64,000 bases of DNA, from positions 733-64,732 of the forward strand of contig JBEKCO010000003.1 of the NCBI GenBank assembly GCA_050014835.1. Reading direction: 5' to 3'. The position numbers were made by a program, and so were the translations under genes. The notes below the pieces were generated by a model. It did not search any database. It was given only the letters and a program-made list of their open reading frames with translations, and was not told the DNA's origin. This document shows positions 1-18,574 of the stretch, piece after piece; position 1 is the first letter of the stretch, and each line of letters starts with the position of its first letter. The DNA comes from Acidimicrobiales bacterium. Its GTDB lineage: Bacteria; Actinomycetota; Acidimicrobiia; Acidimicrobiales; Bog-793.

Positions 1-943
1 ATCCCGGTCGCCGCCTCGAGATGGGCCGCCCCGCGTCGGTCCGGTGCCAGCCCGACGACCCGGCCGCCGCGCTCGTGTGCCGCGAGGGCCGCGGCACGCA
101 CCATCGCCAGGGCGCGGAGCGGATCCGTCTCGGAATCCGTCCCGACGACACCGGAAAGCGCGATACCCGTCCCGCCGAGGACCGGAGCCGAGTCCATCAG
201 CGTCGCGAGATGCTCGGTGAGCGCTGCGACCTCCCTCGTCTCGAATCGGGTCTCGATCAGACCGCCGGGGATGCGCCCGCCTCCGGCGGCCCGCAGCAGG
301 AGGGATCGCTCCCCGCAGGCGACGACCTCGCCCGAGCCCAGATGGGCGTCGACGGCGGCTTCGACGCGCCCGGCGGGGGCGCCGTCGACGAGGCGCGAAC
401 AGGTCGCTCGGATCAGCTCGCGCCGGTCGAACGCCCGGCCGAGGGAATCGGCGGCGATCCCGACGCGTGCCTCGACCTCCTGGTCGCGGTCGACCCCGGC
501 CATCGCGCCGCGCACGGCGCCCCTGTCGAGCCGGGAGACCGCCGTGCGCGACACACCGAACGAGAATGCTCGTTCGCGCCAGGCGGCGACGAGCGTCGGG
601 TAGTCGCCGCCGAGATCCTTTGGCGCGCGGGTGCGGTTCGCGGCAAGACGCGCCGAGTACGGCCCGGACCGCCCCGTCCGGGCGAGCTCGGCGGCGATCT
701 CCGCGCTCCGGCGGGAGAACCCCCGCAGCGCCGCCGCCGGAATGCCGATGAGGTCCGCGAAGCCCTCGGCGCGCGTCTGCCAGTCGACCGACAGCCGCCG
801 AGAGATCTCGTGCCGCAGCCCGGCGCGGTAGAGCGCGCCGGCCGCCGCGGCGTGCACGAAGAGCGGGCGGGCGTCGATCGCTGACCATCGCCGGTCGGCG
901 TCCGGTGCGAGGTTGGCGATGACGAGATGTGTATGGAGGTGCG
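1..943 (-). pseudogene. TrwC/MobF-family conjugative relaxase, distal fragment of a gene split by the casposon (continues past the left window edge)
   Basis: The minus-strand frame is open from 943 to 1. It is absent from the ORF track because it has no stop in the window. My translation from 943 downward reads PHLHTHLVIANLAPDADRRWSAIDARPLFVHAAAAGALYRAGLRHEISRRLSVDWQTRAEGFADLIGIP... This is the HxH half of the relaxase His-triad plus downstream helices. It joins in frame to 18092..18574. The 21..884 + ORF is its Arg/Gly/Pro-rich antisense shadow. Confidence 0.8.
930..943. repeat. Target-site duplication, left copy (TGTATGGAGGTGCG)
   Basis: The identical 14-mer recurs at 18092..18105, directly abutting the other element terminus. 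A 15th base (G) also matches, but it is equally the first base of the TIR. Confidence 0.85.
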
Positions 944-975
944 GGGATAGGTGATAGCGACGGCGGAAACGTCCG
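944..975 (+). repeat. Casposon left terminal inverted repeat (GGGATAGGTGATAGCGACGGCGGAAACGTCCG)
   Basis: The reverse complement of 18060..18091 is GGGATAGGTGATAGGGCGCGCGGAAACGTCCG. That is 28/32 identical, with the first 14 and last 13 nt perfect. Confidence 0.85.
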
Positions 976-1007
976 CTTTGCTTGGACAGAGTGGTCCCCG
1001 TGACGAG

Positions 1008-2240
1008 CTAAGTGAGAAAGCGGAACCTAGGTAACTGTGGGTTCACGAGACGTACACCCTGCTGGACCTGGAGATCGTCGATCCCATCAAGGCTGAGCGG
1101 ATCATCAAGACGACAGACCTGAATCAGGTTTCCTGCGCTCTCCAACCCGACGCGATGAATGGCGGTCAGCGTCGAGCGCAGGTCGACAGTTGGCTGTTCA
1201 CCAAACCAGAACTTGAGGTCGGGCTCGCTTAGGTCTGGTGCTGGAGTGGTCGCTAAGCGACCGACTGCACCGCCGGAAGGGTTTATCGCCAAGTCGGTCT
1301 TTGACGTTGGTGCAGGGTCATCGCTGACCACGCACTCAGCGTTCCAGCTAGTCGCCAGATCGAAGGCTGCGGTAGACATCCCGCTGGAGTGTCTGATGTA
1401 CCCAAACTGCATGTGAAAAAGGTCGAGGAAGAGGCGACTGAGTCGCTCGAGAGCATCGTTGACTGGGGTCTCGGTGATCGCCGAGTGAGGCAGGAGCACG
1501 GGTCGGCCGAACTTGGAATGGAAGAGAGCCGATCGAGTGCCGACGTAGAGGTCGTTAAACACATCGGTGACCGCGTCATGGGATCCAGTGGGCGCGTAGC
1601 GGCTCAGCGGAAGAGCTGAATCCACCTGCTGCAGGGCACGCTTCAGCCAGACGCCCTCTTTCTCGGTGGGCACTCCCGCGGCCGAGAGAAGTTGAGGGAC
1701 GATGCTGCTCAAGAGTGCCTCGAGCCCTAGATACATGTTGCGGTAGGCATCGAATAGGTCTGACGTGATTTGAGCAAGGCGGAAGTACCGAAGGCTTGGA
1801 TGCCAGACAAGGGAAGGCGGAGGATGTGAGACGACGTTCCCGTCCTTCTCGGTCCAGTACCCGGTCGCCGACCCCTTCATGCCCATGTCGGACACCCCAA
1901 ACAGTCGCGTAACCAGAGATCCGGCGTCGGTCCACCATGCAATGTGGCCACTGTCGGCGCTCTCGATGACCAGATCGGTCATGGCGTGCATCGTGAAACG
2001 ATCGAGTGCTTCTTGTGCAGCTTCGTACGCACGACCGAGCACTGCTGCATAGCTATCGATCGCTGCCGACGCTCGAACGACGATTTGCTGTGAACCCTCG
2101 ACCAGCTCCGCGGACCATCCAGCAGACAGAGCCTCGACGCAGGTGAGACTCGACGCTTGGCTCAGCTGGAACGAACCTCCACAAGCGCTACGCGGTCCGC
2201 TGACCACCAGCACTCTTGGGTCGTTGTCGATGGCAGACAT
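1008..2240 (-). CDS. Hypothetical protein (casposon cargo) with a possible HEPN-like Rx4H motif
   Basis: Long ORF with coding-like composition. The ATG at 2240 is preceded by GAAGGGA (SD-like); the track start at 2261 is an alternative. RSALFH (Rx4H) is encoded at 1518..1535. I recognise no other domain. Confidence 0.55.
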   Translation of the reverse strand: MSAIDNDPRVLVVSGPRSACGGSFQLSQASSLTCVEALSAGWSAELVEGSQQIVVRASAAIDSYAAVLGRAYEAAQEALDRFTMHAMTDLVIESADSGHIAWWTDAGSLVTRLFGVSDMGMKGSATGYWTEKDGNVVSHPPPSLVWHPSLRYFRLAQITSDLFDAYRNMYLGLEALLSSIVPQLLSAAGVPTEKEGVWLKRALQQVDSALPLSRYAPTGSHDAVTDVFNDLYVGTRSALFHSKFGRPVLLPHSAITETPVNDALERLSRLFLDLFHMQFGYIRHSSGMSTAAFDLATSWNAECVVSDDPAPTSKTDLAINPSGGAVGRLATTPAPDLSEPDLKFWFGEQPTVDLRSTLTAIHRVGLESAGNLIQVCRLDDPLSLDGIDDLQVQQGVRLVNPQLPRFRFLT

Positions 2241-2394
2241 TCGAATCCCTTCTGGGCGCAACCAACCTCAGGCATGGCGATCAGAGCGCAGAACGCGACG
2301 CTATTGCAGTTCCGATCGACTCGTGTTGGGCCCGTTCCCACTTTCCAGAGGGGACACGTCCGCCTCGTCCTCGTCATAGCGCGAAACTGGTCGT

Positions 2395-3330
2395 GTGGCC
2401 GATGCGAGACCAACGAAGCGCCTCAGCGACGATGCTTACGACGCTCTCGTCGAAGCTCTCGCAGTCTTCTACTGGTACCGCGCGGACTTCGAAACCTTCG
2501 TACGGGATGCCCTCACGGATGCTCCCGAGATTCTCGCGCGCCTCGATTTCAAGCAGTCGAAGCGGGTCGTGTCTGTCGACATTACGCGCCAACTGCGAGC
2601 AAAGGAGCCCCGCTACCAGGACCTTACGATCGATCTCCTCATGAGGCTTTCGAAGTTCGACGAACACTTCACGAAGCTTTCGAGGCTCGAGGACGGCGGG
2701 CTGAAAGTCGTCGCCGCTCAGGCTGCGCTGGCCGACGTTAGGCGAGTTGTGGAACGACACTCAGAGATGACCGAAGCTCGTGAGCGCCTCCGGGCGGAGA
2801 TGCGCTCCGAAGCAGAAACAGCGTCGCTTCGTCGAACCCATGAGTCGCTCCTCGAGAAGTTGAGACTGTCCTTCATCGAGTTACGGGGTTTGGAGGATGC
2901 CCACGAGCGCGGTCGAAAACTGGAGAAGCTTGTCAATGGCGTCTTCGAGCTGTTCGAACTGGAACCTCGAGCAGCGTACGACCTCGAGCACGAACAGATA
3001 GATGGCGCATTCACGTTTGACACCGATGACTACCTGCTCGAGGTGAAATGGTGGGCAGAGGCTCTCCAACCAGCACAGCTGCACATCCTCAAGGGCAAGA
3101 TTGAGACGAAGGCGAAGCATGTCTTCGGCCTTTTCTTAGCGATCAATGGATTTACTACCGGTGCTATCGAGGCTTACTCGCACGGAACGCCGCTCATCCT
3201 CATGGATGGAATGGACTTATACGCTGTTCTTGAAGGCCGGATCTCTCTGCGTGAGGTCCTTCAACGCAAGCGACGGTTTGCCGCAGAGACAGGAGTGCCG
3301 ATGCTGCCTGTTTCGACGATGCTCGAGTAA
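2395..3330 (+). CDS. Mrr-cat/PD-(D/E)xK restriction-endonuclease-like protein with an unknown coiled-coil N-terminal domain
   Basis: The C-terminal half reads ERGRKLEKLVNGVFELFELEP...IDGAFTFDTDDYLLEVKWW...GLFLAINGFTTGA. This matches the Mrr_cat pattern (G..FE..., D...(D/E)xK, trailing hydrophobic strand). The N-terminal ~170 aa are helical, Arg/Glu-rich and unassigned. Confidence 0.6.
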   Translation: MADARPTKRLSDDAYDALVEALAVFYWYRADFETFVRDALTDAPEILARLDFKQSKRVVSVDITRQLRAKEPRYQDLTIDLLMRLSKFDEHFTKLSRLEDGGLKVVAAQAALADVRRVVERHSEMTEARERLRAEMRSEAETASLRRTHESLLEKLRLSFIELRGLEDAHERGRKLEKLVNGVFELFELEPRAAYDLEHEQIDGAFTFDTDDYLLEVKWWAEALQPAQLHILKGKIETKAKHVFGLFLAINGFTTGAIEAYSHGTPLILMDGMDLYAVLEGRISLREVLQRKRRFAAETGVPMLPVSTMLE

Positions 3331-3334
3331 CGAG

Positions 3335-6295
3335 TCAAGCCAGGGCCTCCATCGCCTTTCGGTGTCCGGCGTGCGGCATCGCCCGCCCCTTCAAGATGTC
3401 CCTGGCCCTACGCTCGCTGATCCCGATGGCGTCGGCGACCTTCTTGGATCCCATCGCCTGCAGCTTCGGCAGTGTGATCCTCCGCCACCCGTCATCGTCG
3501 TCGTAGACGGCCAGACGATCGTCCAGCTCCTCGACCGTGACGAGCCCAGCCATCCGCTCCTCGAGCCTGTTCGACTCCTTCCCGATGAGCTTGATCTCTC
3601 CGGCGGTAACTGGCCGGCGCTGGAGCAAGCCCACGGTGCCACGCCCGCAGGGCTCGCCGTCGGGGCCGAGCGCCTTGGCCTCGGGATGGGCGGCGTACTT
3701 CTCGTCGACGTCGCCGTAGGTGTCCACCTTCGGCTGGCCGGATCGGCCAGCGACTGTCGTGATTCGGTACGAACGGCGTTCGGGATGGTGCAGGTCGACC
3801 CAGGAGAGCTTCGACCACCGTGTTGGGTCGGATTCCCACGGTGCGACGAGCCGGAAGCGGTCCCCGGGACCGACACCTGCAGGAGGTGTCACGCCGGCCG
3901 CGCTCAGCATGAAGTTGAACGGCTTGACCTGGTCCGCGTACGGCTTGCCCTCGTTGAAGCGCCGGAACGCCCGGAGCACGGCAGGTGACGTGACAGTCGT
4001 GCGGATCATCGTCGGCCGCGCGAACCATCTCGGCCGCTCGACCGGCAGCCCGAGTGCCTCGTGAAGGATGACGGACCAGATCTGAGGGATCCAACGTGGG
4101 TCCTCGCTCTTTGGGCCGAGGGGGTTCAGGAGCTGGCCGAGGCCATGCTCTGACGGTGGGTGCTCCTCGAGGAAGATTGGCTCGCCAGCCTCGTCGAGGC
4201 GGTACAGCGCGTAGCGCTTGGCCGAGATGGCGAAGCACATCGCCGTCGCCTCGTCCTTGAGGATGCTCGGGACCACCTCCTCGTCGTAGGGGTTGAGGGC
4301 CGCGAAGCGGTGCCGGATGGACTCGACCTGGTCGAAAGACAGGGCGCGAACAGCCTCAGACCCATCGGGAAGGCGCGCCGGGCCTCCGGGGCAGGCCACG
4401 AGGCCTCCTCGCTCGGAGCACACGATCGCCATGGAGTCGGTGTCGCAGAACGCCCAGCTGCCGCCCAAGTCGGTGACGTTGCGCTCCAGCACGGCGAGCA
4501 TGAGCCGCGCAGCTCCAGTGATGCAGGTGGCGAGCGGCGGGAAGCAGTACCGCCCCGGGTCCTCGGGGCCGCTAGCCCAGTCCTCGAAGGGAACCTCGGA
4601 TCGGCCGTAGACGACCATTCGGGCCTGCTTGCCCTTCGGGAGCTCGTCCCGGTTGAACTCGCCCCAGATCCCGAAGGAGCCCGCGTTGGCAACGATCTTG
4701 AGAGCCATCGAAAGGCGCTGCTTCTCTCCCTCGGGGAGGTCGGTCCTGTGCAGGATGCGCTGGCGCTCCTCGACCATCGATCGGAACGGGTCCTCCGCGG
4801 CCGGATCGAGCTGCACGGCTCCCCGCAACTTGACGGAGCGGAGCCTTCTCACCCGGCCCACAGGGACCAGGCGGAAGGCTCTCACAATCTTCGGCGTTTG
4901 ACCGGTGAGCAGCTTCGAGGCGACGCAGTCCGGTATCGAGTACCAGAGCGGCTCGCTCGAGGTCAGCGGGTTGACACCGATTCCCCATGACTGGCCGCCG
5001 TAGGCGGCGCGGACAGGGAGGATGTCGCCATCAGGCTCGACAAGCACGAAACCGACCAGCTGGGGCCAGAGGTCCTGCTCGACGGTGTCCTCCAGCGTCA
5101 CGCGCTCGAGCAGCTCCGCGACCTCCGAGGTCGCGTCCACAACTCTGACCTGCTCGGCGGTGCGAAAGCGGTGGAGGTCCATGAGCGCCCCGACGGTTGG
5201 GTACATCGAGGTGAAGTCGGTGAGCTTCACGGGGACTGGGACGCGGCGGATCCGGCATTCGGCCCTGCCGCCGAAGAACGTGGACATGGCGTAACCGAGA
5301 TCCTCGCGGGAGAAGTCCGGCTGGCGGTCGAGAATCGGCAGCAGGCCCATGGCGTTGAGGTAGGCCTTTGCCATCGAGGCAGGAGAGTAGGCGCGCTCGG
5401 GCGAGATGGTGACCGGGTGACGCTCGAACTCGGCGTTGAGCGCCATATAAAGGCCAAAGGTCGCGGCGGCGTCCTGGCGGCAGTAGTCGATGTACTTCTC
5501 GGTGATCTTCCCGTGGCCTCCGGGGTTGTCCTTGCCTTGGACGCCGAAGGCATCACACGCGTCTTGGAGGCTGTAAGCAATTCCCGTGAGGGCGAAGGCG
5601 AGCGTTCTCAGGTCGAGGAAACGCCCCCGCCAGGCGTAGCCGGGGTCGGGCTTCTGGTCCCTGGAGCCGTCGGGGATCAGGTCGACAAGGTCGGGCTCTA
5701 CAGGCTTGGTGAAGGACATGAACGCGAGCTTCGAGTTGGCGTGCTTGATGTCGACCCTGGGCCGGTGGCGGCGCTCCTTGTGAGGCGTGCCCGCCTTGCC
5801 CGGCGCGAGGACCAGGGAGAACCCGCCACGGTTCATGCGGCGTCCCTCGCTGGCCCTGATCGCCAGCCTCGACAGATCGAAAGGGAGGTTGAAGCCGACG
5901 ACCAGGTCACGACCCCCGTAAGCGGCTGAGAAGAAGACCCTCTCCACGAACTTGGACTGCGACAACAGCCGGATTCGCCGTTGCCTGCCTGTGCCGAGGA
6001 GGGTGGAGCGCTTGGCCACATAGCGCTGCAGCTCCGCGTAGCCTCCGGGGTCTCGCTCAGGAAGGACGTCGGCATAGAAGAGCCCCTCATCGATGAGCAT
6101 CGGCCCGTCGGGATCGAGGCGGTAGTAGCGCCAGGCGCCGAACTTGAGCGCCTGGGCGTAGTCCGTCGTGGTCTCCGTGTCGAACACGAGGACACCTGGC
6201 CGGACGGTGTGCCGATGGTCGGGACGCGAGCGTCGCTTGGTGTCGACCCGCTCCGTCCAGACGCGGTGCGCGATGGGAAGCCTCGGATCGGTCAT
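3335..6295 (-). CDS. polB: Family B DNA polymerase (casposon PolB), 986 aa
   Basis: Exonuclease motifs: Exo I VLVFDTET, Exo II GFNLPFDLSRL, Exo III YCRQDAAAT. Polymerase motifs: A DFTSMYPT, B KIVANAGSFGIWG, C FCDTDS (DTD encoded at 4436..4444) and KxY AISAKRYAL. About 265 aa of C-terminal extension end in an HTH-like segment (KKVADAIGISERRARDIL). Confidence 0.9.
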   Translation of the reverse strand: MTDPRLPIAHRVWTERVDTKRRSRPDHRHTVRPGVLVFDTETTTDYAQALKFGAWRYYRLDPDGPMLIDEGLFYADVLPERDPGGYAELQRYVAKRSTLLGTGRQRRIRLLSQSKFVERVFFSAAYGGRDLVVGFNLPFDLSRLAIRASEGRRMNRGGFSLVLAPGKAGTPHKERRHRPRVDIKHANSKLAFMSFTKPVEPDLVDLIPDGSRDQKPDPGYAWRGRFLDLRTLAFALTGIAYSLQDACDAFGVQGKDNPGGHGKITEKYIDYCRQDAAATFGLYMALNAEFERHPVTISPERAYSPASMAKAYLNAMGLLPILDRQPDFSREDLGYAMSTFFGGRAECRIRRVPVPVKLTDFTSMYPTVGALMDLHRFRTAEQVRVVDATSEVAELLERVTLEDTVEQDLWPQLVGFVLVEPDGDILPVRAAYGGQSWGIGVNPLTSSEPLWYSIPDCVASKLLTGQTPKIVRAFRLVPVGRVRRLRSVKLRGAVQLDPAAEDPFRSMVEERQRILHRTDLPEGEKQRLSMALKIVANAGSFGIWGEFNRDELPKGKQARMVVYGRSEVPFEDWASGPEDPGRYCFPPLATCITGAARLMLAVLERNVTDLGGSWAFCDTDSMAIVCSERGGLVACPGGPARLPDGSEAVRALSFDQVESIRHRFAALNPYDEEVVPSILKDEATAMCFAISAKRYALYRLDEAGEPIFLEEHPPSEHGLGQLLNPLGPKSEDPRWIPQIWSVILHEALGLPVERPRWFARPTMIRTTVTSPAVLRAFRRFNEGKPYADQVKPFNFMLSAAGVTPPAGVGPGDRFRLVAPWESDPTRWSKLSWVDLHHPERRSYRITTVAGRSGQPKVDTYGDVDEKYAAHPEAKALGPDGEPCGRGTVGLLQRRPVTAGEIKLIGKESNRLEERMAGLVTVEELDDRLAVYDDDDGWRRITLPKLQAMGSKKVADAIGISERRARDILKGRAMPHAGHRKAMEALA

Positions 6296-6729
6296 TTGAT
6301 CCCGGGAAGACCCCGCCAGGGGGGAAGGTGCTCGTCCAGGGATCGCACCACGCCCGCGACCTCATCAGCCCAGCGTTGGAACGAGTCCGCAAGTTGGCGG
6401 AAGAAGGCCGCGAGGGAACGCATGGCGAGGGCGAGTCGCTCCAAGCAGGTTGGGGCACGGCCGGCGGGGAGCGCACCCACGTCTTGCTGGGCAGCCGTCG
6501 CCTTCGCGTGGCAGTTGCAGCAGACCACGACTTCTACTTCTTGGTCGTTCGCCTCACCGAGGGGATGGTGCGCCTGCAGGAGCTTGCGAGTCGATCGCCG
6601 AGCGGTGGTCTTGCGAAGCACGGTTGGATCGGTCTCGCCACATAGGGCGCATGCCGCATCCGGGGGCAGCGGTCGGGCTCTTTTCCTTCGGCGAACCTCG
6701 TTCTGGATTGGATCTGGATCTTGAATCAT
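6292..6729 (-). CDS. HNH endonuclease-like protein
   Basis: The ATG at 6729 is preceded by AAAGGAA. The sequence CALCGETDP...LQAHHPLGE...VVCCNCHAKAT gives a CxxC...HH...CxxCH layout typical of HNH. Its stop overlaps the polB start by 4 nt. The N-terminal 76 aa of the track ORF were rejected because they overlap the upstream gene. Confidence 0.65.
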   Translation of the reverse strand: MIQDPDPIQNEVRRRKRARPLPPDAACALCGETDPTVLRKTTARRSTRKLLQAHHPLGEANDQEVEVVVCCNCHAKATAAQQDVGALPAGRAPTCLERLALAMRSLAAFFRQLADSFQRWADEVAGVVRSLDEHLPPWRGLPGIK

Positions 6730-6739
6730 TTCGTTCCTT

Positions 6740-7267
6740 TCATGGTCCCGTGATGTAGATGTCGTCAATGTCGATCTCGCCACGCCGGAGGAACTCCTCG
6801 ACCTGGTCAGGATCTGTCGCCAACACGGCCCCGCCGACGCGTTTGCCCGCAAAGGGCGTGAGCACTCCAACGTCGCCCGTGGCTGCGAATCGCTGGATGG
6901 CGTTCCAGTGCCGGCCGACTGCCGAGCGGGCCTGAGACCCTCTGACGTCGACGTCAACGACTCCGTCGCTCGAGAGCACGCTCATGCGCTGGAAGCTGCG
7001 ATCCGAGGGAGTGGGCACATAGCGTTGCCCTTGCCGGACGAGCGAGTCGCCTGCGTAGCGGCGCACGGTCTCTGGCGTCGTGCCGTGCCTCCTCGCCGCG
7101 GTGCGAAGCGAGACCTTCTCGGTTCTCATCGCGCTGAGCGTCTCGAAGGCCTTGTGCCTTGCTTCGCGCTCAGCAGGTCTGAGCCGCTCGTATTCGCTGC
7201 GGCCCCGCACTTTGCGGGGCATAGTGCGCTGGCGATACTCGGCTGAGAAGTCACGGGTGCGGGCCAT
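6740..7267 (-). CDS. Hypothetical protein with a predicted HTH (casposon core operon)
   Basis: 175-aa ORF in the same operon as polB/HNH. The segment VSLRTAARRHGTTPETVRRY looks like an HTH. No family recognised. Confidence 0.5.
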   Translation of the reverse strand: MARTRDFSAEYRQRTMPRKVRGRSEYERLRPAEREARHKAFETLSAMRTEKVSLRTAARRHGTTPETVRRYAGDSLVRQGQRYVPTPSDRSFQRMSVLSSDGVVDVDVRGSQARSAVGRHWNAIQRFAATGDVGVLTPFAGKRVGGAVLATDPDQVEEFLRRGEIDIDDIYITGP

Positions 7268-7275
7268 CGCTTCAC

Positions 7276-7500
7276 TTAGCCGGTTCCGCCGCGTTGAGCT
7301 CCGAGACTGCGACGGCGGGCCAGGTCACGTACGGCCGCGAGTTGCTCGACATCGTCTCGAACCCAGAGCTGACCCAGAGGGGTCATCTCTCTCGGCACGA
7401 GGCGTCCCGATCGTGCAAGCTGCCGTACTCGCTCAGCAGAGATCCCGAGCCGTCGGGCAACCTGTGATGTCGTCATGAGCTGGCTAGATTCGTCAATCAT
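7276..7500 (-). CDS. Small MerR/excisionase-type HTH DNA-binding protein
   Basis: LMTTSQVARRLGISAERVRQLARSGRL is a classic Xis/MerR-like HTH. It is the first gene of the minus-strand core operon and is divergent from the cas1 operon. Confidence 0.6.
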   Translation of the reverse strand: MIDESSQLMTTSQVARRLGISAERVRQLARSGRLVPREMTPLGQLWVRDDVEQLAAVRDLARRRSLGAQRGGTG

Positions 7501-7559
7501 CTCGTTTGGACCTTATGGCTCCACAAGCGGCTACTTCAAGACTGGTGTAACCTGCAGAC

Positions 7560-8396: not shown

Positions 8397-8466
8397 CAAG
8401 AGCGATCAAGTGCCCCGGGCGAGGCTGCAACCTCCCCGGGGCTGGCACCGAAAGGAGTGCTTTCGA

Positions 8467-10026: not shown

Positions 10027-10204
10027 GAGCTTGAGCCGTCGAGCGGCCCTCCGCGATCAGGGTTCGAGTCCCCCAGCGTCCGGTTCCGTCGGTCGCCCGA
10101 GGGATTGGGGTTCTGGCGGCGCAGTGCGGAGACTCCCGAGGCGTGCCGGGAGGCGGTCCGGGCGGACCCTCCGGTGGAGGGAGCCCACGACCGACCCCCG
10201 GCTC

Positions 10205-10753: not shown

Positions 10754-10820
10754 CGTTCATCTCCGGTCGCGGCTTCGAAAGACTCCAGCGCGAGCAGGAC
10801 ACATCGTCCTGACGGCGGCC

Positions 10821-11708: not shown

Positions 11709-12037
11709 CGCTGACCCCTCCCTCTTGGAGTTGTGCGGTCGTGGGTAACCAGTACCCGGAGCGACGGGGGAAGGACGGAAGGGAGATCCACGCCCAGCGC
11801 CGAGCAGAGATCTAAGGCCTCGATCAGGTCGATCCGCCGCTCGCATGTTTCAATCTTCGACACGTACGCCTGTGTGCGGCTCAGTCGGGATGCAAGTTCC
11901 GCCTGGGTGAGCCCTGCTTGTCGGCGAGCGGCGCGGAGTCGCGCAATCACCTCCGCGTATCGAGGGTCGTGGATCGACGTGGGCTGGTCTCGATTCCCCA
12001 GTTTGGAGTTCGTCGATATCTTTGTCACCGGCCACAT
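11705..12037 (-). CDS. XRE-family HTH controller (C) protein of the R-M system
   Basis: RQAGLTQAELASRLSRTQAYVSKIETCERRIDLIEALDLCSALG is a canonical XRE/Cro HTH. It lies directly upstream of the nuclease gene and is translationally coupled to it. Start taken at the ATG at 12037. Confidence 0.65.
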   Translation of the reverse strand: MWPVTKISTNSKLGNRDQPTSIHDPRYAEVIARLRAARRQAGLTQAELASRLSRTQAYVSKIETCERRIDLIEALDLCSALGVDLPSVLPPSLRVLVTHDRTTPRGRGQR

Positions 12038-12091
12038 CCGAGCCGACTGGGCGGCTAACTCCAAATTCGATTATTTCACGGCCCATGACGG

Positions 12092-13468
12092 ATGACGCTC
12101 CGCAGAGCCACACTGAGCTACAATGCCCGGGAGTCGGGAGAACAACGGGAGAACATCTTGGCCAAGCGTCACCATCTTGTGCGGGGCAGCTGGGAGTCGA
12201 TCTTGGGGCGGCTCGAGGAGCTCGTGCTGGCGAACTCCGGAGAGGACGAGTTCCAAGAGATCTTCAAGCTGCTCCTCGCGAAAGTTTACGCCGAGAGCCA
12301 CCATCAGTCGGAGGGTCTGTTCGCAACCGCGAAGACACCCGAGCAGACCGCTCGAAACATCGATGACTTGTTAGGTCTTGCTGCCCGGCAATGGAAGGGT
12401 GTCCTCGAGGACGCCCCAACGATGCGGCTACGACCAGATCACATTGCGGTTTGCGTCGAAGCAATTGAACATGTCGGACTTCTCGACTCGAACCTCGAAG
12501 TCTTGGATGCGCTATTCGAGGATTTGATGAGTAAGTCATCGAAGGGAGCAAAGGGCCAGTACTTTACGCCTCGCTACGTCGTCGACTGCTGCGTAAAGCT
12601 CGTAGACCCAAAGCCCTCCGAGACTGTGATGGACCCCGCTTGCGGCTCCGCCGGCTTCCTGATTCACACGCTCACTTATGTCAAAGAGCAGAATCCGAGT
12701 CTCGATTTGAAGGAGTATGCACGATCGCGAGTCTGGGGTGCGGACTTCGACCCGCGGGCGATTCAAGTAGCTCGGGCACTTATGCTCGTAGTTGGTGACG
12801 GCCACAGCAACTTGCTGCGGATCAACAGTCTCCTGACGCCGACCGCGGCGCCTGATCTGTTCGATAGCACCCCGACGGCCATGAACGAGCCGACTCTCGA
12901 GGACCTGTTGCGGACTCGATGGAGTTCGTTCAGCGGGTTCGACGTAATCATGACTAATCCGCCGTTTGCCGGCGAAGTCCGGGAACCGGAACTTCTCGGA
13001 CGTTACCAATTGGCTCGTAAGTCTGGGCGTACGGAGCGCGACATTCTCTTTCTCGAGCGCTGCTTGTCTCTGCTGCGACCTGGGGGACGGTTAGCAATCG
13101 TTCTTCCTCACAACAAGTTCGCATCCTCGGTTTGGGCTTATGCGCGTCAGTGGCTGATTCAGCGCGCACAGATCGTCGCGGTGTTAGGTTTAGGTCGCTA
13201 CACGTTTCTTCCTCATACAAGCCAGAAGGCAGCAATCCTTTTCCTTCGCAAGCGAGATCACATCGAGCGATCCCCCGATAAAGAGCCGATTCTCTTCCTT
13301 TTGAGCGAACGAGACGGCAAGAATTCGAAAGGCGAAATCATTCCGCGGGGAGGAGTCGCGTTCGACGCTCCCGCCTGGGTGAGAGCGGATCACGACTTGA
13401 GTGAGGTCGTGCCTGTCTTCTCGGAATTCATAGAAGCCAACGGCATCGAGTGGGCAACCCATGGCTAG
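12092..13468 (+). CDS. N6-adenine DNA methyltransferase, HsdM-like (N6_Mtase family)
   Basis: Motifs seen: GQYFTPR, motif I DPACGSAGFL and motif IV NPPF (12956..12967). Confidence 0.85.
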   Translation: MTLRRATLSYNARESGEQRENILAKRHHLVRGSWESILGRLEELVLANSGEDEFQEIFKLLLAKVYAESHHQSEGLFATAKTPEQTARNIDDLLGLAARQWKGVLEDAPTMRLRPDHIAVCVEAIEHVGLLDSNLEVLDALFEDLMSKSSKGAKGQYFTPRYVVDCCVKLVDPKPSETVMDPACGSAGFLIHTLTYVKEQNPSLDLKEYARSRVWGADFDPRAIQVARALMLVVGDGHSNLLRINSLLTPTAAPDLFDSTPTAMNEPTLEDLLRTRWSSFSGFDVIMTNPPFAGEVREPELLGRYQLARKSGRTERDILFLERCLSLLRPGGRLAIVLPHNKFASSVWAYARQWLIQRAQIVAVLGLGRYTFLPHTSQKAAILFLRKRDHIERSPDKEPILFLLSERDGKNSKGEIIPRGGVAFDAPAWVRADHDLSEVVPVFSEFIEANGIEWATHG

Positions 13469-14132
13469 AAGCGCTGTGGTCCGGGTTGCCGACCTGGACT
13501 TTGGCACCGTGCTTGCGCCCGAGCGGTATGACCCCCGGCGACAAGTCGTGAGCGAAGGTATCCCACTGACCGATGTGTGCATGATTGTTCGGGAGAGCGT
13601 CAGCAGCAGCGGCAGGGCCGGGCAGGCTGATCGCCTCTACTACGTGCTCGATACATCCGCGGCTCGGGAGGGGTTTCTCGTCATTGATCGCCCACCAGTG
13701 CCTCGGGCGGACATAGGCAGCCTCAAGAAGCGGGCTCAGGCGCGGGACGTCCTGATTTCGCGCCTTCGCCCTTACCTTCGACAGGTCGCCTACGTGGATG
13801 ATGAGGCGGTGAACTGGGAAGAGGCCGAGCTCGCGTGCAGCACGGAGTTCTACGTTCTTCGTCCACTCGACGGCCGTAGCATCGCTTTCCTAATTCCGTT
13901 CCTTTTGAGCCCGGGGGTTCAGGCTCTCCTCGCGGCATCTCAGGAAGGTGGGCATCACCCGCGCGTCAACGAAGCAACGCTTCGGAGTCTCAGAATCCCA
14001 CGGGACGTGATCGCGACGCGGGCGGAAGCCTCTACCAACTTGGAGCAAGCTGCTGGTGACATGCGCCGTGCTACGCAAGTCGTCGCCAGATTGGTGGCGA
14101 AAGCATCGGAGAGCTGGGTTAACCCTACCTAA
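13461..14132 (+). CDS. Half-size specificity (S) subunit with a single target-recognition domain
   Basis: Overlaps the M gene stop by 8 nt. RDVLISRLRPYLRQV, STEFYVLRP and HHPRVNEATLRSLRIP resemble the Methylase_S (HsdS) TRD plus conserved helix. At 223 aa it is about half of a Type I HsdS. Confidence 0.7.
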   Translation: MARSAVVRVADLDFGTVLAPERYDPRRQVVSEGIPLTDVCMIVRESVSSSGRAGQADRLYYVLDTSAAREGFLVIDRPPVPRADIGSLKKRAQARDVLISRLRPYLRQVAYVDDEAVNWEEAELACSTEFYVLRPLDGRSIAFLIPFLLSPGVQALLAASQEGGHHPRVNEATLRSLRIPRDVIATRAEASTNLEQAAGDMRRATQVVARLVAKASESWVNPT

Positions 14133-14363
14133 GCCCAGACTGCCGCGGGTGCGTGCCCCCGTAATTCAGCACCTGCAAACTGGGGTGTGCCCTAAGTTTC
14201 GTTGATAGTGTCAACCAAACCCGGACCGGACTTGGGCGGCGTGAGCCCAGAATCGACCGTCCGCCGAGCCCCGTCACATCCCTATCTTGACCTGTGAATG
14301 GCCCTCATCGTGTCGACGAGGGCCGAAGGGGCGCTGGGAAGGCGGCTGACGCCCCGGAGGCGG

Positions 14364-14384
14364 CCGACGCCCCGCAGGCGTCGG
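14364..14384. terminator. GC-rich hairpin between convergent cargo modules (possible bidirectional terminator)
   Basis: CCGACGCC-ccgca-GGCGTCGG gives a perfect 8-bp stem. There is no clear U-tract. A second hairpin, GGCCCTC...GAGGGCC, lies at 14300..14324. Confidence 0.25.
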
Positions 14385-14487
14385 AAGGTTCGCAGTGCTG
14401 GGTCGGGGTGGTGATTCTCGCCGTTGTGCTGACGGCAAGCCCGCGAGACGGCTGCCCTATTCAAACGGCAACTTCTCCATCTCGCGG

Positions 14488-15120
14488 CTACAAGGTGCGA
14501 AGAAACTCAATAAGCGGTCGGAATGCGATATGACTCCAGTCGAATACGTGGTTGTCGGCGGCTTCCCCGATCAATCTCTTGCCCTTCGACGCGACCAGAG
14601 CTTGCATCTTCAATTTCGACTCGTGTGCTGCATTCATAGATACCATTCCGGTTATACAGCTAGCGAACGGCTCAACACATCCCATGTGAGGATCGCCGGC
14701 CATGCAGTCGAGGAAGATATCTTCAAAAACGCCATTTCCTGAGTTGTCGGGAGAGATGAAGACAGTCACGTCGGGTGTTCCCCGTGCTCGGCTCAATGGG
14801 GCAGCTGGAACGGATAGGCCTGCAACCTCAAGAGCACCAGTGACATTGGACCACGAAACGGCGAAGCTTTGTTCCGCGTCGCACAGAATGCCAACGGATT
14901 GGACCTCAGAGAAACCACTCGCCTTTCTGGCTACACTCAGCTTCTCACCGAGATTGGTCCTTCCGTGCAGGTCCCGCAGTCCAAGTCCCGAAATCGATTG
15001 GTCTTGCATCAACGCTGCAATCGCTCGAAACTCATCGTCGCCCTCTACAAAGAGCACCTTGCGTTGCGCAGATGCATCACCCCATTTAAGGGTCGACACC
15101 CTATCGGACCTCAAATCCAA
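14488..15120 (-). CDS. TOPRIM-like small protein (DUF4435/DUF3226/RloB-like superfamily)
   Basis: KVLFVEGDDEFRAIAALM is an EG.D motif typical of TOPRIM-like DUF4435/DUF3226 proteins, followed later by FISPDNSGNG. It lies immediately downstream of the ATPase gene. The start is ambiguous: TTG at 15120 overlaps the ATPase gene by 20 nt, while GTG at 15099 sits just after the ATPase stop. Confidence 0.5.
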   Translation of the reverse strand: MDLRSDRVSTLKWGDASAQRKVLFVEGDDEFRAIAALMQDQSISGLGLRDLHGRTNLGEKLSVARKASGFSEVQSVGILCDAEQSFAVSWSNVTGALEVAGLSVPAAPLSRARGTPDVTVFISPDNSGNGVFEDIFLDCMAGDPHMGCVEPFASCITGMVSMNAAHESKLKMQALVASKGKRLIGEAADNHVFDWSHIAFRPLIEFLRTL

Positions 15121-16264
15121 GTTCGAGAGCTTCCCCTAGTTCCTCGGCAGTAAACCCAATGGCCTTAACTGCCTCGCCATCGCGCTCAACACGAAAGACC
15201 CGGAAGTCCTCACCGCTCGGCAACAATCCAGGATCTCGACTGAAATATCGTTGCGCAGCAGCTATACACTCAAGTGAGTGCGTTGTCGCAACCAATTGGA
15301 CTCGGGACTGTCTCGTCGCCTGGTCAAGCGACGCCCAAATGGATTCGAGCACCGAGTAATGAAATCCGTTTTCAATCTCGTCAATTAGCAACAGGCCGTC
15401 GCGTGCCGAAGCGGCGTCAACAAGCAGGGAAGTGAGCTTCTCGGTCCCTTCACCCATAAGCTTCAGCGGCATCTGATGGCCGATGCCGATGTCGCCGTAG
15501 AGCTGAGCACCGATGGGAGTCGCGACAGTCGTGATGTCCTTCAGACGGGGCTCCATCATCTTAAGGCTCTCGACCAATTCTGGAACTTGCTTTTGAACCA
15601 CGAGTTGTCCAAACAGTTGTGCCAATTCGTTAGGGTTCCCATCCGCTCGACTGGGCCGATAGATAGCGGGCATGGTGGCTTGAGGAAGAGCGCCTGACAC
15701 GCGTAGTTGGCCGCTCTGTTCGAAGATTATGTAACCCGTAGTTTGTGGAATCATAAATCCGGACGAAGTTTGCTTCCCTGGGACTTGTAACTCCAAAACA
15801 TGTGGCTGCGCCCCAAAGGCCCATACCTCCGAATCAACAATTGGTTGCCCCGGGAATAGCACAGGAGCAACTTTCTCTTGGATCTCCTGGGCGTCGATGA
15901 GGTTCCTGAGGCGCAAGGTTGACGTTTCCGAATTGTTTGTGGTGATAGCAATTTCGATTGGCTGAGAGACCTCGTATCTGTGAAACCATGCTGCCCAAGG
16001 CGCCTCAACACCGCGCATAAACGGTTGGAAGCCCCAGTTTGGTGAATTTCTGACAGGGGCATTCAGGACCAGCATGAAATTGTTGAACGGCATGTTCTTG
16101 AGCTGCAGAGCTTCAAGGACCGCGGTCTTTCCAACATTGTTTAATCCTGCAATGAGGTTGATTCGGGCCAGAGGCTCAAGGATCAGGTCTTTGAATCCTC
16201 GGAAGTGCGAAATGTTCGCGCGGCGAATGAACCGACCGTCAGTCCCTGACGATTCGAAGGTCAT
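15101..16264 (-). CDS. ABC-type (AAA_21-like) ATPase
   Basis: Walker A is GLNNVGKTAVLEAL and Walker B is LLLIDEIENGFH, followed by VATTHS (H-loop). It is about 390 aa with a long insertion between the two motifs, as in OLD/AriA/RloA-type ATPases. Confidence 0.8.
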   Translation of the reverse strand: MTFESSGTDGRFIRRANISHFRGFKDLILEPLARINLIAGLNNVGKTAVLEALQLKNMPFNNFMLVLNAPVRNSPNWGFQPFMRGVEAPWAAWFHRYEVSQPIEIAITTNNSETSTLRLRNLIDAQEIQEKVAPVLFPGQPIVDSEVWAFGAQPHVLELQVPGKQTSSGFMIPQTTGYIIFEQSGQLRVSGALPQATMPAIYRPSRADGNPNELAQLFGQLVVQKQVPELVESLKMMEPRLKDITTVATPIGAQLYGDIGIGHQMPLKLMGEGTEKLTSLLVDAASARDGLLLIDEIENGFHYSVLESIWASLDQATRQSRVQLVATTHSLECIAAAQRYFSRDPGLLPSGEDFRVFRVERDGEAVKAIGFTAEELGEALELGFEVR

Positions 16265-16483
16265 TGCAAACTCAGTCTCCTACGGAAACAAGGCTTGAAT
16301 TGGCCGAAGTTAGCACCCCCGCGCGTGACCTGCTTGGGCTGCCTGAGCTTTGCGACGAGCCTTCACCATCGCGCACACCGACCGCCGACCTTGCGTGTGC
16401 CTGATCGTCGGCACTGTGCGCTACTCCGACCTATCCGGCCAGCATCCCCGACGACAAGACCGTTGAGTGCCATCCTGGATCAG

Positions 16484-17557
16484 GTGCGAATACGCGGTGG
16501 AGGTCAGCCCCTCTTCAATCGGAGCTCGCGTCACTTGGGGACTCGCGATCGCGTCGGTCGTTTTCCCCGAGACGAGGCTTGGGGTCTGATCTCATCAGTT
16601 GCCCAACGCCTCTGGCCTGCTCTGCTGGGGGTGACGTTCCTACCCACTATTTTCTTTCTGCCCGCTTTCTTCCTGCTACACGGGGCAGCGCGCTGGGTCA
16701 CAGTTGGTGCGGTAGCTATCTCTGGACCATGGATCGTCGCGCTCATCACGATTGTCATGAGCGGTGCATCCGATCTCTTCATGGGCCTTGAATCGGAAGG
16801 TGACACTGCGGATGTTCTACGAAGTCTGCGGCACGACGGCTGGAAGTTGGCGAACGGCATCAAGATTCGGGGAAACCAAGACATCGACCATCTGGTTGTT
16901 GGTCCGGCCGGGCTCTTAGTGGTCGAGACGAAATGGAGTCGACATCGTTGGCCTCTCGGAAAAGACAGCGAACCGTTCATGCGGGATCGCTTGTCCGATG
17001 CCGTGGACCAGCTGCTTCGCAATCGTGAGGATGTCATTACTCAATTCGGCAAAGTCATCAACGGTGCGCCAGTTCGGCCAGTCTGCGTTGTTTGGTCGCC
17101 GGAAGATTCAGCTGGCGATGATCCCTGGGTCGATTTCGACGGCGCCCTCGTCGTTCGCGGACCCGCCCTCAGGTCGTGGCTGCGGACCTTGACTGACGTA
17201 GCACTCGACGAGCGCGGTATTGATCGAGTTTGGCAAGAGGTAACGCTCCACTACGCGCTACGCGACAAAAATGATCGCTCGCGCTCATATCGACCTCGCC
17301 GAACGATTATCAGGGTCGCCGTGGATTGGTTCCTGGCACCATTCCTCGGCTTCGTGTTGGCTTTTTATGGATTGGTGGCCGTTGTCCGCCTTCATCAGTC
17401 ATGGCTTGATATCGCCGGCCCCCTGGTCTTCACGGCAGTTGGTGTTGCGGTACGACGCGTCGCTTTTCTCCGTCGGGTCGCTGTCGGCTGGATCGTAGGC
17501 TCCGTCGGGTCCGTTTTGATTCTCCTGGCCTTTGTCATCCGCGACGTCGTCAGGTAA
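16484..17557 (+). CDS. NERD-domain protein flanked by transmembrane segments
   Basis: GLESEGDTADVLRSLRHDGWKLANGIKIRGNQDIDHLVVGPAGLLVVETKWSRHRW matches the NERD pattern (EGE...W...DIDHLVVGP.G..VVETK). Hydrophobic helices lie before it (LLGVTFLPTIFFLPAFFLL, VTVGAVAISGPWIVALITIVM) and after it (FLAPFLGFVLAFYGLVAVV, GPLVFTAVGVAV, VGSVGSVLILLAFVI). The start is uncertain: GTG at 16484 was chosen, and the track gives TTG at 16295. Confidence 0.65.
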   Translation: MRIRGGGQPLFNRSSRHLGTRDRVGRFPRDEAWGLISSVAQRLWPALLGVTFLPTIFFLPAFFLLHGAARWVTVGAVAISGPWIVALITIVMSGASDLFMGLESEGDTADVLRSLRHDGWKLANGIKIRGNQDIDHLVVGPAGLLVVETKWSRHRWPLGKDSEPFMRDRLSDAVDQLLRNREDVITQFGKVINGAPVRPVCVVWSPEDSAGDDPWVDFDGALVVRGPALRSWLRTLTDVALDERGIDRVWQEVTLHYALRDKNDRSRSYRPRRTIIRVAVDWFLAPFLGFVLAFYGLVAVVRLHQSWLDIAGPLVFTAVGVAVRRVAFLRRVAVGWIVGSVGSVLILLAFVIRDVVR

Positions 17558-17678
17558 CTGGCCAGTGATCCCTCAGCCCACGGACTCAAGCAGCGTCCCA
17601 AGTTGTTCCTCGAAGCCCCGTCGCAGGGGTGCCTCACATCGCCGGCTCGGCGGCCGCCGCGGGGGACGATGAAGTCGG

Positions 17679-18026
17679 TTACTTGGTCGTTCTTCGGCGA
17701 CCGGAAAACCAGACTCGCTGCTGATTTCGATCAACTCGGATGACCTGCCTACCGTTGTCGAGCCAGGCGCGTGCATGCACATGTGTTGTTGCTTTACTTC
17801 GATCGAGCCACCACGCGTCGTAAGTGAACGCCGACATCGGCAATGAGATTCCGAGACGTTCGATCTCGCTGAACGACATTTGGAGAGGGCCGTCGTCGGT
17901 GGAGCTGAGAAATTCATAGAGCGGGTCATACTTGGCCACGCCCGAATCTTGACATGTGCGCCAGTCAACTGGGTCGGCTGTACCCCATAACGATGGGCGG
18001 GCACCTTCTGGTGCCCGGAGCGTCAA
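17679..18026 (-). CDS. Small hypothetical protein (conserved KYDPL...SFSEIE...LP.SA...WW motif family)
   Basis: 115-aa ORF. VAKYDPLYEFLSSTDDGPLQMSFSEIERLGISLPMSAFTYDAWW resembles a widespread uncharacterised domain often found on mobile or defence loci. An alternative GTG start lies at 17939. The gene ends 34 nt inside the right TIR. Confidence 0.45.
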   Translation of the reverse strand: MTLRAPEGARPSLWGTADPVDWRTCQDSGVAKYDPLYEFLSSTDDGPLQMSFSEIERLGISLPMSAFTYDAWWLDRSKATTHVHARAWLDNGRQVIRVDRNQQRVWFSGRRRTTK

Positions 18027-18059
18027 GTGCTTGCTGTTGCGAGCGGCGCACCCCGCTCA

Positions 18060-18091
18060 CGGACGTTTCCGCGCGCCCTATCACCTATCCC
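18060..18091 (-). repeat. Casposon right terminal inverted repeat
   Basis: The reverse complement, GGGATAGGTGATAGGGCGCGCGGAAACGTCCG, matches 944..975 at 28/32 positions. Confidence 0.85.
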
Positions 18092-18105
18092 TGTATGGAG
18101 GTGCG
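18092..18105. repeat. Target-site duplication, right copy (TGTATGGAGGTGCG)
   Basis: Identical to 930..943. On the minus strand it encodes part of PHLHT of the relaxase. Confidence 0.85.
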
Positions 18106-18574
18106 GATCCTCAGCGCGGCTCGTCCGGTGGAGGAACGACGCAGCAGCGAAACCGGGCGAGGCGACGGGCGCGCCGGAGCGGCGCACAGTCGCGGCGTGC
18201 CTCTCCAGGTACCCGAGGGCCCCGGCGACCGCACGCTCATGCGAGGCGCGCACCTGCTCCACGGTTTCCGGCCCGCCGAGGGCGTGGAGGACGCTTACGG
18301 ACTTCGGTGCGGCAAAGGTGCAGTCGAAGGCCGCGACGGTGACCCGGCCATGGCGGGGATCGAGCGCCTCGCCGCTCGTCGGATCCACGCCGGCGAGCAG
18401 CATCGTCAGATTCGCGGCGTCGACGGTCCGGTCCGCGAGGCCGAGGCCCTCGGCGAGGATCCCCCACCAGACACCGTCGGGTTCGACGAGTCCCGGCCGA
18501 TCGGGTGCCGCCGCCCGCGTCGACTCGAGGTAGTACGTCTCGCGTCCTCGCCGCACCTTCGCCACGCTCAGCAC
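18092..18574 (-). pseudogene. TrwC/MobF-family relaxase, N-terminal fragment truncated by the casposon
   Basis: MLSVAKVRRGRETYYLES...GVWWG...AAFDCTFAAPKSVSVL...ASHERAVAGALGYLERHAATVRR...ASFLHRTSRAEDPHLHT is the canonical TrwC relaxase N-terminus. After HLHT (ending at 18092) the frame runs into TIR sequence (GIGDRARG...) and stops at 18023. Confidence 0.85.

Follow-up and report, generated by a model that had tools for sequence, protein, structure and literature searches.

The casposon and the split relaxase gene

We analysed a 64,000-nt stretch of an Acidimicrobiales genome (assembly GCA_050014835.1, contig JBEKCO010000003.1, positions 733 to 64,732 of the forward strand; this whole stretch is called the window), in which a casposon, a mobile element with an integrase of the Cas1 family, lies inside a gene for a MobF/TrwC relaxase. 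The features that define the insertion are listed here from left to right.

3..944, minus strand: split MobF/TrwC relaxase, the C-terminal part, which starts at P157, includes the duplicated PHLHT and runs past the left edge; open frame, 100% identity to the intact protein P0121
930..944: target-site duplication, left copy, TGTATGGAGGTGCGG, minus-strand codons P157-T161; exact 15-mer repeat, single copy in the empty-site contig L019
945..975: left terminal inverted repeat (inverted repeat I1), from the tip GGGATAGGTGATAG to AAACGTCCG; tip conserved in the related loci L011, L015, L342 and L344
3335..6295, minus strand: family B DNA polymerase (PolB), protein-primed type, 986 amino acids (aa); Exo I-III and Pol A/B/C motifs, and homologues
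8467..10026, plus strand: casposase, a Cas1 homologue of 519 aa that carries a Cys4 cluster at its C-terminus and a tail like a helix-turn-helix (HTH); PF01867, 6e-39
18060..18091: right terminal inverted repeat; inverted-repeat search
18092..18106: target-site duplication, right copy; exact 15-mer repeat, single copy in L019
18092..18574, minus strand: N-terminal relaxase fragment (aa 1-161, with YY at 14-15, H149 and H160); open reading frame (ORF), tblastn with P0121 residues 1-161

The minus-strand ORF that starts with GTG at 18574 reads MLSVAKV...FLHRTSRAEDPHLHT to base 18092, adds 22 codons inside the terminal inverted repeat and stops at 18023; an earlier sequence-only reading of this DNA had likewise followed it to 18092 and on into the repeat. 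That reading let the C-terminal frame begin at 943; the frame is indeed open, beginning with PHLHTHLVIANLAPD... and meeting no stop before the left edge of the window, but its true first base is 944. Its claim that deletion of 944..18105 restores a seamless relaxase ORF holds: in-silico excision takes out 17,162 bases and leaves an open frame, with identical products for the deletions 945..18106 and 944..18105. Aligned to TrwC profiles, the rejoined protein has one Pfam TrwC match (PF08751, 2.8e-64), which covers residues 30-282 and spans the join; it scores 194 bits against the NCBIfam model NF041492 MobF (cutoff 100), and its alignment with the TrwC structures 1omh and 2cdm is free of gaps through the histidine motif (FLHRTSRAEDPHLHTHLVIANL versus FRHETSRERDPQLHTHAVILNM). 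Contig L001, which supplies 751 bases left of the window, completes a rebuilt relaxase of 698 codons ending in a stop, and the gene call of that contig for the C-terminal part is a 513-aa TrwC fragment.

The target gene has a relaxase domain with a His triad and N-terminal tyrosines: by alignment with TrwC the triad is H149, H160 and H162, which we take to be the counterparts of H150, H161 and H163 in TrwC, and YY stands at positions 14-15. The ORF is broken between T161 and H162, inside the His-triad codons as had been claimed before. The insertion cuts H149, H160 and the N-terminal tyrosines off from H162 and the remaining protein, so that neither fragment can build the metal site and the relaxase is inactivated.

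The duplication TGTATGGAGGTGCGG at 930-944 and 18092-18106 is 15 bp long, or 14 bp if the shared G is counted as part of the repeat arm. Between its copies lie 17,147 bp with a G+C content of 61.4%, against 70-75% in the flanks. The terminal inverted repeats (32 nt, 944/945-975 and 18060-18091) are 88% complementary, both arms having the tip GGGATAGGTGATAG and the inner box AAACGTCCG. The casposase scores 107.9 bits against TIGR00287 (cutoff 71.7) and matches Cas1 (4n06, 2e-20) and the M. mazei casposase (6opm, 2e-16) in the PDB, and its residues H255, D257, D267 and E270 are invariant among 38 homologues. In PolB the motifs DTE, NLPFD, YCRQD, DFTSMYPT, KIVANAGSFG and CDTDS were spotted by eye. 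Pfam scans of the element ORFs found no further cas genes; moreover, no tyrosine or serine recombinase, DDE transposase or other integrase was found in the ORFs scanned with Pfam, PADLOC, NCBIfam and PHROGs, those below 100 aa being partly scanned. Inverted ends together with a 14-15-bp duplication are the signature of Cas1 and casposases (PMC6614799). With a Cas1 integrase in the absence of other cas genes, a PolB, inverted ends and a 15-bp duplication confirmed against a real empty site, window positions 945-18091 are an intact 17,147-bp bacterial casposon, which agrees with the sequence-only reading. We also considered that the casposon might carry an internal copy of its target, and rejected this, as there is none in the window element, in L011 or in L015.

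The empty site

The rebuilt relaxase, used as a query, retrieved P0121, an uninterrupted protein of 732 aa that is 100% identical. Its contig, L019 from a metagenome, carries one copy of the 15-mer, and its flanks are identical to those of the window over 944/944 and 1000/1000 bases; the filled allele is present on more than 20 contigs from several samples. The single 15-mer of L019 directly verifies the 15-bp duplication, and because this isogenic empty site has identical flanks the insertion is recent and polymorphic. The sequence-only reading had called the insertion recent as it saw no decay in the split gene; this is borne out by the empty site and by the lack of decay inside the window, but homology is lost just left of it. 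In every filled-allele contig the homology to L019 breaks off at L019:12025 (L001:139, 1.56 kb left of the casposon), 174 nt ahead of the relaxase stop codon, and beyond that break the contig ends within 138 nt of unrelated DNA. This loss therefore indicates a second rearrangement in the filled haplotype, which removed the 3′ end of the relaxase gene and possibly also the coupling-protein gene that follows it in L019. For the segment L001:1-138 (751 bases left of window base 1) there is a 92% match in L231:2262-2389, which lies some 50 nt away from another casposon end.

Related casposons at the same relaxase codons

Besides the empty site in L019, casposons in the same codons of other relaxase genes were found at five further loci, the kind of copies that the sequence-only reading had suggested looking for (identities are to the window proteins).

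L011: Cas1 89%; type I restriction-modification cargo; same orientation; duplication ends ACG in both copies, against ACA in the window
L015-17: Cas1 83%; ion channel and HNH; relaxase 58%/49%; ABC-permease neighbour; opposite orientation; duplication CCCCACCTTCACAGC
L342: Cas1 65%; MmeI-type enzyme and Prok-E2/ThiF/JAB; relaxase closest to helicase-bearing MobF; duplication CCGCAGCTGCACACC (PQLHT)
L344: Cas1 63%; contig bounded by its own duplication, CCACACCTGCACACC (PHLHT)
L225: 1.4-kb contig with a DPQLHT junction

The related casposons have Cas1 proteins that are 62-89% identical, lie in both orientations, differ in cargo and interrupt relaxases about 37-94% identical, and their duplications match each local relaxase gene in both copies (ACA, ACG, AGC and PQLHT variants). 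At least five of these elements lie in relaxases whose identity has fallen to about 37-58%. In L011 and L015 the N-terminal fragment comprises aa 1-161 and the C-terminal fragment starts from aa 157. These are evidently at least five independent site-specific insertions by related casposons at the same five relaxase codons. Because the duplications match locally, both orientations occur and the flanks are divergent, we regard chance, vertical inheritance and homologous recombination as excluded. The motif DP[HQ]LH[TSA]H is present in 117 of 120 relaxase homologues and, being near-invariant, offers a landing site wherever such a relaxase exists. For the L015-type target CCCCATCTTCACAGC, intact orthologues, that is, empty sites, are present in a related species (L339, L340) with flanks 91-93% identical. 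In L306:859-936, just one 14-nt duplication of the relaxase type, CCCACTTCCACAAG, stands between two facing casposon ends, which form a tandem pair that arose because the same site was reused. The metagenome contig L344:1-17768 (17.8 kb) consists of one casposon with 21 and 15 bases of flank and the duplication at both ends, and this shape is what an assembler yields when filled and empty alleles coexist.

Taken together, it is very probable that this is an intact bacterial casposon whose Cas1-family casposase integrates site-specifically into the motif III DNA (…FLHRTSRAxD-PHLHT-H…) of MobF/TrwC relaxases. The A. boonei casposase has a strong site preference that comes from the leader upstream of the duplicated segment and from CC at its first two bases (PMC6614799, PMC5137440), and in every relaxase case the duplication likewise begins with CC. 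By analogy, the casposase of the window would read the leader just upstream of the duplicated segment and the first CC of that segment (PMC6614799), would attack the two strands in a staggered manner 15 bp apart, and repair of the gaps would generate the duplication; the element may be copied by its own PolB.

Conserved core and variable cargo

The remaining genes of the window element are as follows.

1008..2261, minus strand: cargo ORF, about 410-417 aa; called in L001-L005; no Pfam, PADLOC or PHROG match
2395..3330, plus strand: Mrr_cat restriction-endonuclease-like cargo gene; PF04471, 5.2e-07
6292..6729, minus strand: HNH-like small protein, 145 aa, conserved beside PolB; CxxC...HH...CxxCH, weak PHROG HNH matches (0.003-0.02); copies 67-85% identical in L269, L280 and L320
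6740..7267, minus strand: conserved core ORF, 175 aa, function unassigned; 82-92% identical in L269, L280 and L320; called in all related loci
7581..8396, plus strand: ORF, 271 aa, directly upstream of cas1; called in L001-L010, equivalents upstream in L011 and L015; no family match
10205..11708, minus strand: two cargo ORFs, 182 aa and 295 aa; L001 gene calls, no family match
11705..12064, minus strand: HTH_3/HTH_31 (XRE-type) regulator; PF13560, 2.3e-11, and PF01381, 1.8e-10
12092..14132, plus strand: N6-adenine methyltransferase (type I-like HsdM) and a specificity-subunit-like gene; PF02384, 1.7e-32; PADLOC MTase_I, 1.1e-90, and Specificity_I, 1.1e-13
14488..16264, minus strand: candidate two-gene defence module, a DUF3226 protein (14488-15120) and an AbiLi-like ATPase (15101-16264); PADLOC AbiLi 1.5e-49, PDC-M38A 2.3e-43, PDC-M38B 1.4e-07; Pfam PF13304, PF13175, PF11536
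16295..17557, plus strand: NERD-domain nuclease-related protein; PF08378, 9.2e-11

Among the related casposons a core of PolB, the HNH-like ORF, the 175-aa ORF and Cas1 is conserved, and the arms hold wholly different cargo.

Window 1008-3330 and 10205-17940: AbiLi-like/PDC-M38 pair, type I-like methyltransferase with specificity gene, Mrr, NERD
L011:12146-19254: full type I restriction-modification system
L015:11800-21319: ion channel, HNH
L342:1-5062 and 11627-17941: MmeI-type enzyme, NERD, Prok-E2/ThiF/JAB module

The relaxase-site casposons thus behave as carriers of defence genes.

Wider relatives and their targets

A scan of species-representative genomes with the Cas1 alignment returned 344 Cas1 relatives, at most 63% identical, whose hosts are metagenome-assembled genomes (MAGs) of Actinomycetota, Chloroflexota, Acidobacteriota and Gemmatimonadota. 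Elements with clear ends in this set have a related tip, GGGATAGGnGATAG, and duplications that begin with GTCAA at an apparent promoter −35 box. In this wider bacterial casposon family (Cas1 37-46% identical), the duplications are 12-20 bp long and start with GTCAA or end with TTGAC (loci L024, L030, L031, L046, L062, L064, L066, L071, L073, L080, L084, L087, L092, L093, L095 and L098), the adjoining host DNA resembles a sigma-70 promoter (TTGAC(C)-N17-TACACT, TATACT, TAAGAT or TAGACT), and the genes downstream vary (trigger factor, valyl-tRNA synthetase, rhomboid, TPR-like protein). Rfam found no RNA gene in six promoter-type loci, so that none lies downstream of these promoter-like sites, and the promoter itself may be the target of this wider family.

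Metagenomes were scanned once for junctions with a 22-base end pattern, which gave 117 loci with 97 distinct junctions: 29 come directly after the T-loop of a tRNA, at tRNA-Arg, Val and Gly 3′ ends, at least 21 follow a relaxase-type leader, about 13 abut another casposon end, and the remainder are downstream sides. The 22-nt end motif GGGATAGGTGATAG-N10-AACGTCCG is exact in the casposons at the 3′ ends of tRNA-Arg, Val and Gly (L221, L224, L234, L251, L261, L273, L331 and about 20 more among L219-L335). The tRNA-site elements with this end motif have Cas1 proteins 31-47% identical to that of the window, and the tRNA-site loci L224, L276, L331 and L334, in which Cas1 is visible, just 31-37%. 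Since the same end motif accompanies so divergent a Cas1 in tRNA-site elements, end recognition is conserved while target choice differs, and it looks as if the relaxase target had been derived, by retargeting, from a background of tRNA targets. The idea that the relaxase leader mimics the T-arm and acceptor end of a tRNA was rejected by an anchored consensus comparison, in which only CC..CAC near the border was in common, with a 2-nt offset and no positional match to GGTTCGAATCC. A scan of viral contigs with the 14-nt end sequence gave chance-level hits only among the matches listed.

Chromosomal context of the relaxase

The host genes next to the N-terminal relaxase fragment in the window are these.

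18664..20582, minus strand: pafC-like and pafB-like WYL regulators; PF19187, PF13280, PF25583; same order in L019
20672-22546, plus strand: typA/bipA; GTP_EFTU, BipA_C

The same pafC, pafB and typA genes lie on this side of the relaxase in L019. On its other side L019 has a convergent coupling-protein gene (TrwB/TraG-D_C domains), followed by small ORFs, PIG-L, cofC, an acetyl-CoA synthetase-like gene, gpsA and rnhB. The order relaxase, coupling protein, cofC recurs with relaxases that are 63% (P0126) and 37% (P0187) identical, within a range of 37-64%; HU was called in L336 and L339, and PIG-L in L019 and L339. This syntenic block of Acidimicrobiales-like genomes is seen in L019:10001-16000, in L336 with L337:10001-16100 and in L339 with L340:10001-16400, and consists of a MobF relaxase without a helicase domain, a convergent VirD4/TraG-like coupling protein and, after HU and PIG-L in some contigs, cofC. 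The domain scan of P0121 gave PF08751 alone, with no C-terminal helicase domain of the TraI/TrwC type; helicase domains (PF13604 and others) are confined to more distant relaxase homologues, for example P0211, P0215 and P0226.

The sequence-only reading had supposed an integrative and conjugative element (ICE) or integrated plasmid to the left, and thus a transposon nested in another mobile element, and had proposed to look there for genes of a type IV secretion system (T4SS) or a coupling protein. A coupling-protein gene does follow in L019, but then come housekeeping genes, and neither T4SS genes nor an integrase lie beside the relaxase and coupling-protein pair in L019 and the syntenic contigs. 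We therefore drop the supposed ICE or plasmid, and nesting is not supported for the window copy because its target belongs to a syntenic chromosomal pair. The conserved gene order points to a vertically inherited, long-resident chromosomal pair as the target here, and this pair is dispensable, since filled and empty alleles both occur. At L342 and L225, where the closest relatives of the relaxase bear helicases, nesting in a mobile element may still apply; around one of these relatives, P0226, Pfam recognised no T4SS genes.

Relaxase relics beside casposon ends

Many junctions retain just 13-60 codons from the N-terminal side of the relaxase, and some of these adjoin a C-terminal relic of Cas1 or casposons reduced to PolB fragments. 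We read the short relics as eroded old insertions, in which the dead gene and the neighbouring elements would have decayed. Moreover, mini-targets of about 45 bp lie just outside casposon ends and encode ...LHRTSRASDPH[LF]H.. in frame with no relaxase ORF upstream (L237, L245, L252, L271, L277, L294, L303, L312 and L314-L316; also L230, L256, L283, L222, L278, L319 and L270). One group of them has a relic of the Cas1 C-terminal domain about 100 nt further out, and some of the elements are PolB fragments. Two candidate explanations are that the mini-targets are eroded old insertions, or that they are a portable landing pad. A third, that they are relaxase segments trapped between two casposon families 30 bp apart, was rejected, as it is contradicted by the continuous range of relic lengths (13, 25-27, 43, 58 and 163+ aa) and by the lack of an upstream N-terminal fragment; erosion fits better than trapping, though it is unproven.

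Weighing the explanations

Several observations weigh against site-specific integration of a genuine casposon into relaxase motif III. The identity of PolB depends on motifs and homologues: its own profile matches are weak (PHROG DNA polymerase 3.7e-4, PF03175 0.043), it has no match in Pfam or NCBIfam at default thresholds, and PDB sequence searches, with the single protein and with a 22-sequence profile, were empty; PF03175 is matched by 13 of the 22 full-length PolB homologues (46-80% identical), with a best value of 1.1e-9. None of the 79 species-representative loci examined (Cas1 at most 63%) has a TrwC fragment within 10 kb; their elements use other targets, and relaxase targeting is therefore restricted to a fairly narrow clade that is seen in metagenomes alone. 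The element at L020:18222 (Acidimicrobiales MAG CAVWWR010000001.1), with a Cas1 63% identical, has no relaxase next to it: a low-complexity repeat of the GGCATGGG type adjoins its visible end (tip GGGATAGGAGATAAGG), and there is no relaxase fragment within 10 kb. The junctions with relics of 13-60 codons are many, and the erosion by which we account for them is unproven. Moreover, conservation does not single out the bases read by the casposase, since the 45-bp region is coding sequence and conserved as such throughout.

A bolder form of site-specific integration is that a casposase lineage was retargeted from tRNA 3′ ends to about 45 bp of MobF coding sequence and became a sequence-specific relaxase killer. 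We put this forward tentatively, as a possibility well short of an even chance. If true, such a casposon could enter any replicon that carries a gene of this kind, be it in a chromosomal pair, in an ICE or on a plasmid, and would deliver an ever-changing defence cargo. New copies would stack leader-proximally, as in a CRISPR array; a tandem pair and Cas1 relics beside relaxase leaders are seen. It would then be a case of natural reprogramming of a Cas1 target and of conflict between casposons and the conjugation machinery.

A related explanation is adaptive: the casposon would disable the relaxases of conjugative elements, or ride on them, and the motif would be more than a mere landing pad. 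Defence genes dominate the cargo, the nearest matches of the L342 and L225 relaxases are MobF proteins of the conjugative type that bear helicases (P0215, P0226), and group II introns spread with conjugative elements via the same motif (PMC7947834). However, in the window and in L015 the target is the syntenic chromosomal pair without a T4SS, the surroundings of P0226 have no recognisable T4SS either, and a search of 72,556 plasmids (cutoff 1e-20) found no relative of the window Cas1; as for hitch-hiking, an insertion in the relaxase would halt the carrier's own transfer. We consider conflict or hitch-hiking doubtful.

A reversible switch is improbable. Regulated precise excision would restore the relaxase, as in skin/sigK or in phage regulatory switches, and it would fit the seamless restoration in silico, the coexistence of filled and empty alleles and a duplication of 15 bp, which is five codons and frame-neutral. 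However, no excision products are in evidence, the filled haplotype carries a further lesion close to the 3′ end of the relaxase gene, and the old insertions, with eroded relics and decayed casposons, indicate a gene that is lost and not maintained. Spread by homologous recombination or by HNH-driven homing, as in inteins and introns, in place of Cas1 transposition is more improbable still. Although homing elements typically occupy conserved catalytic motifs and this element has an HNH-like gene, homing needs flanking homology and leaves no target duplication, whereas this element has a 15-bp duplication and 32-nt inverted ends; duplications of 14-15 bp are characteristic of Cas1 and casposases (PMC6614799), the flanks, which in L015 have a protein identity of 58%/49%, have diverged much too far to recombine, and the L015 copy is reversed. 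Least credible of all is a casposon with no preference for relaxases, its insertion being either one chance event or an ancient one that was passed on vertically: in vitro, casposases that are given no cognate site can integrate with low specificity (PMC6614799), and the window and L011 have the same pafC context, but the insertions hit the same five codons in relaxases with 37-94% identity, in differing genomic contexts and in both orientations, with both duplication copies fitting the local gene (ACA, ACG, AGC and PQLHT variants), and the isogenic empty site makes the window copy recent.

Comparison with known systems

Tn7 reads the 3′ end of glmS by means of a dedicated targeting protein, TnsD, and inserts downstream, so that the gene is preserved. 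Both Tn7 at attTn7 and the window element recognise a highly conserved coding sequence that occurs everywhere, but the latter inserts within the recognised motif; the logic of a conserved site is that of Tn7 and of tRNA targets, but at the cost of the target gene.

Casposons have been described as targeting the 3′ ends of tRNA or aEF-2 genes and leaving the target genes unaltered (PMC4046053), whereas here the relaxase ORF is split. The sequence-only reading had suspected a target logic of another kind, and it was right in this respect: relatives independently hit the same codons, while the known targets stay intact (PMC4046053). In the literature searched, we found no paper that links casposons with relaxases, and the casposon reviews and later papers in it name no relaxase target. 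With AciBoo-C1 of A. boonei (family 2), the window element shares a Cas1-family integrase, PolB, inverted ends and a 14-15-bp duplication beginning with CC; AciBoo-C1 is archaeal and lies at the 3′ end of an intact tRNA-Pro gene, whereas the window element is bacterial and lies inside a coding catalytic motif of a split gene. The family 3 casposons of Krupovic et al. 2014 (PMC4046053) also have bacterial hosts, including Actinobacteria, a Cas1 with extra Zn-binding or HTH parts, PolB and methyltransferase or restriction-type cargo; they have HNH too, for which the 145-aa ORF of the window element is a candidate counterpart. The bacterial host, the Zn cluster with HTH tail and the HNH-like gene of the window element agree with family 3 without being diagnostic of it, the comparison being one of features. 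Filled and empty sites within a species, that is, recent mobility, are shared with the casposons of M. mazei (PMC4779613, PMC10359463), as are tandem arrays by reuse of the target (here L306, two ends with one duplication); the M. mazei casposons are archaeal, belong to families 2 and 4 and occupy tRNA-Leu and other non-disruptive sites (PMC4779613, PMC10359463).

The closest precedent for the choice of target comes from the group II introns Ll.LtrB and Ef.PcfG, which, according to PMC7947834 (citing Staddon et al. 2004), invade the conserved catalytic His-triad codons of IncP-type relaxases in conjugative elements of Firmicutes. The same paper states that they are thought to profit from this, as a conserved motif offers many unoccupied sites in orthologous genes (PMC7947834). 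Specific invasion of relaxase His-triad codons is thus common to both; however, the introns are retroelements that find their target by RNA base-pairing and splice out, leaving the relaxase functional, whereas the window element is a 17-kb DNA transposon in a MobF gene and cannot splice, so that the gene is inactivated.

Significance

Casposons are studied as ancestors of CRISPR spacer integration, and their recent mobility has so far been documented mainly in Methanosarcina; here, filled and empty alleles with identical flanks are found in bacteria. What is new is a genuine casposon with a gene-disrupting class of target, inside a protein-coding catalytic motif, and it converges with group II introns on the same relaxase histidine triad. 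The locus also exposes a conserved chromosomal pair of relaxase and coupling protein in Acidimicrobiales. Moreover, it indicates that the specificity of a casposase can be re-aimed in nature and, with a defined site of 45 bp, an end motif of 22 nt and relatives that have these ends but insert at tRNA genes, it offers a testable system for how Cas1-family proteins read their targets.

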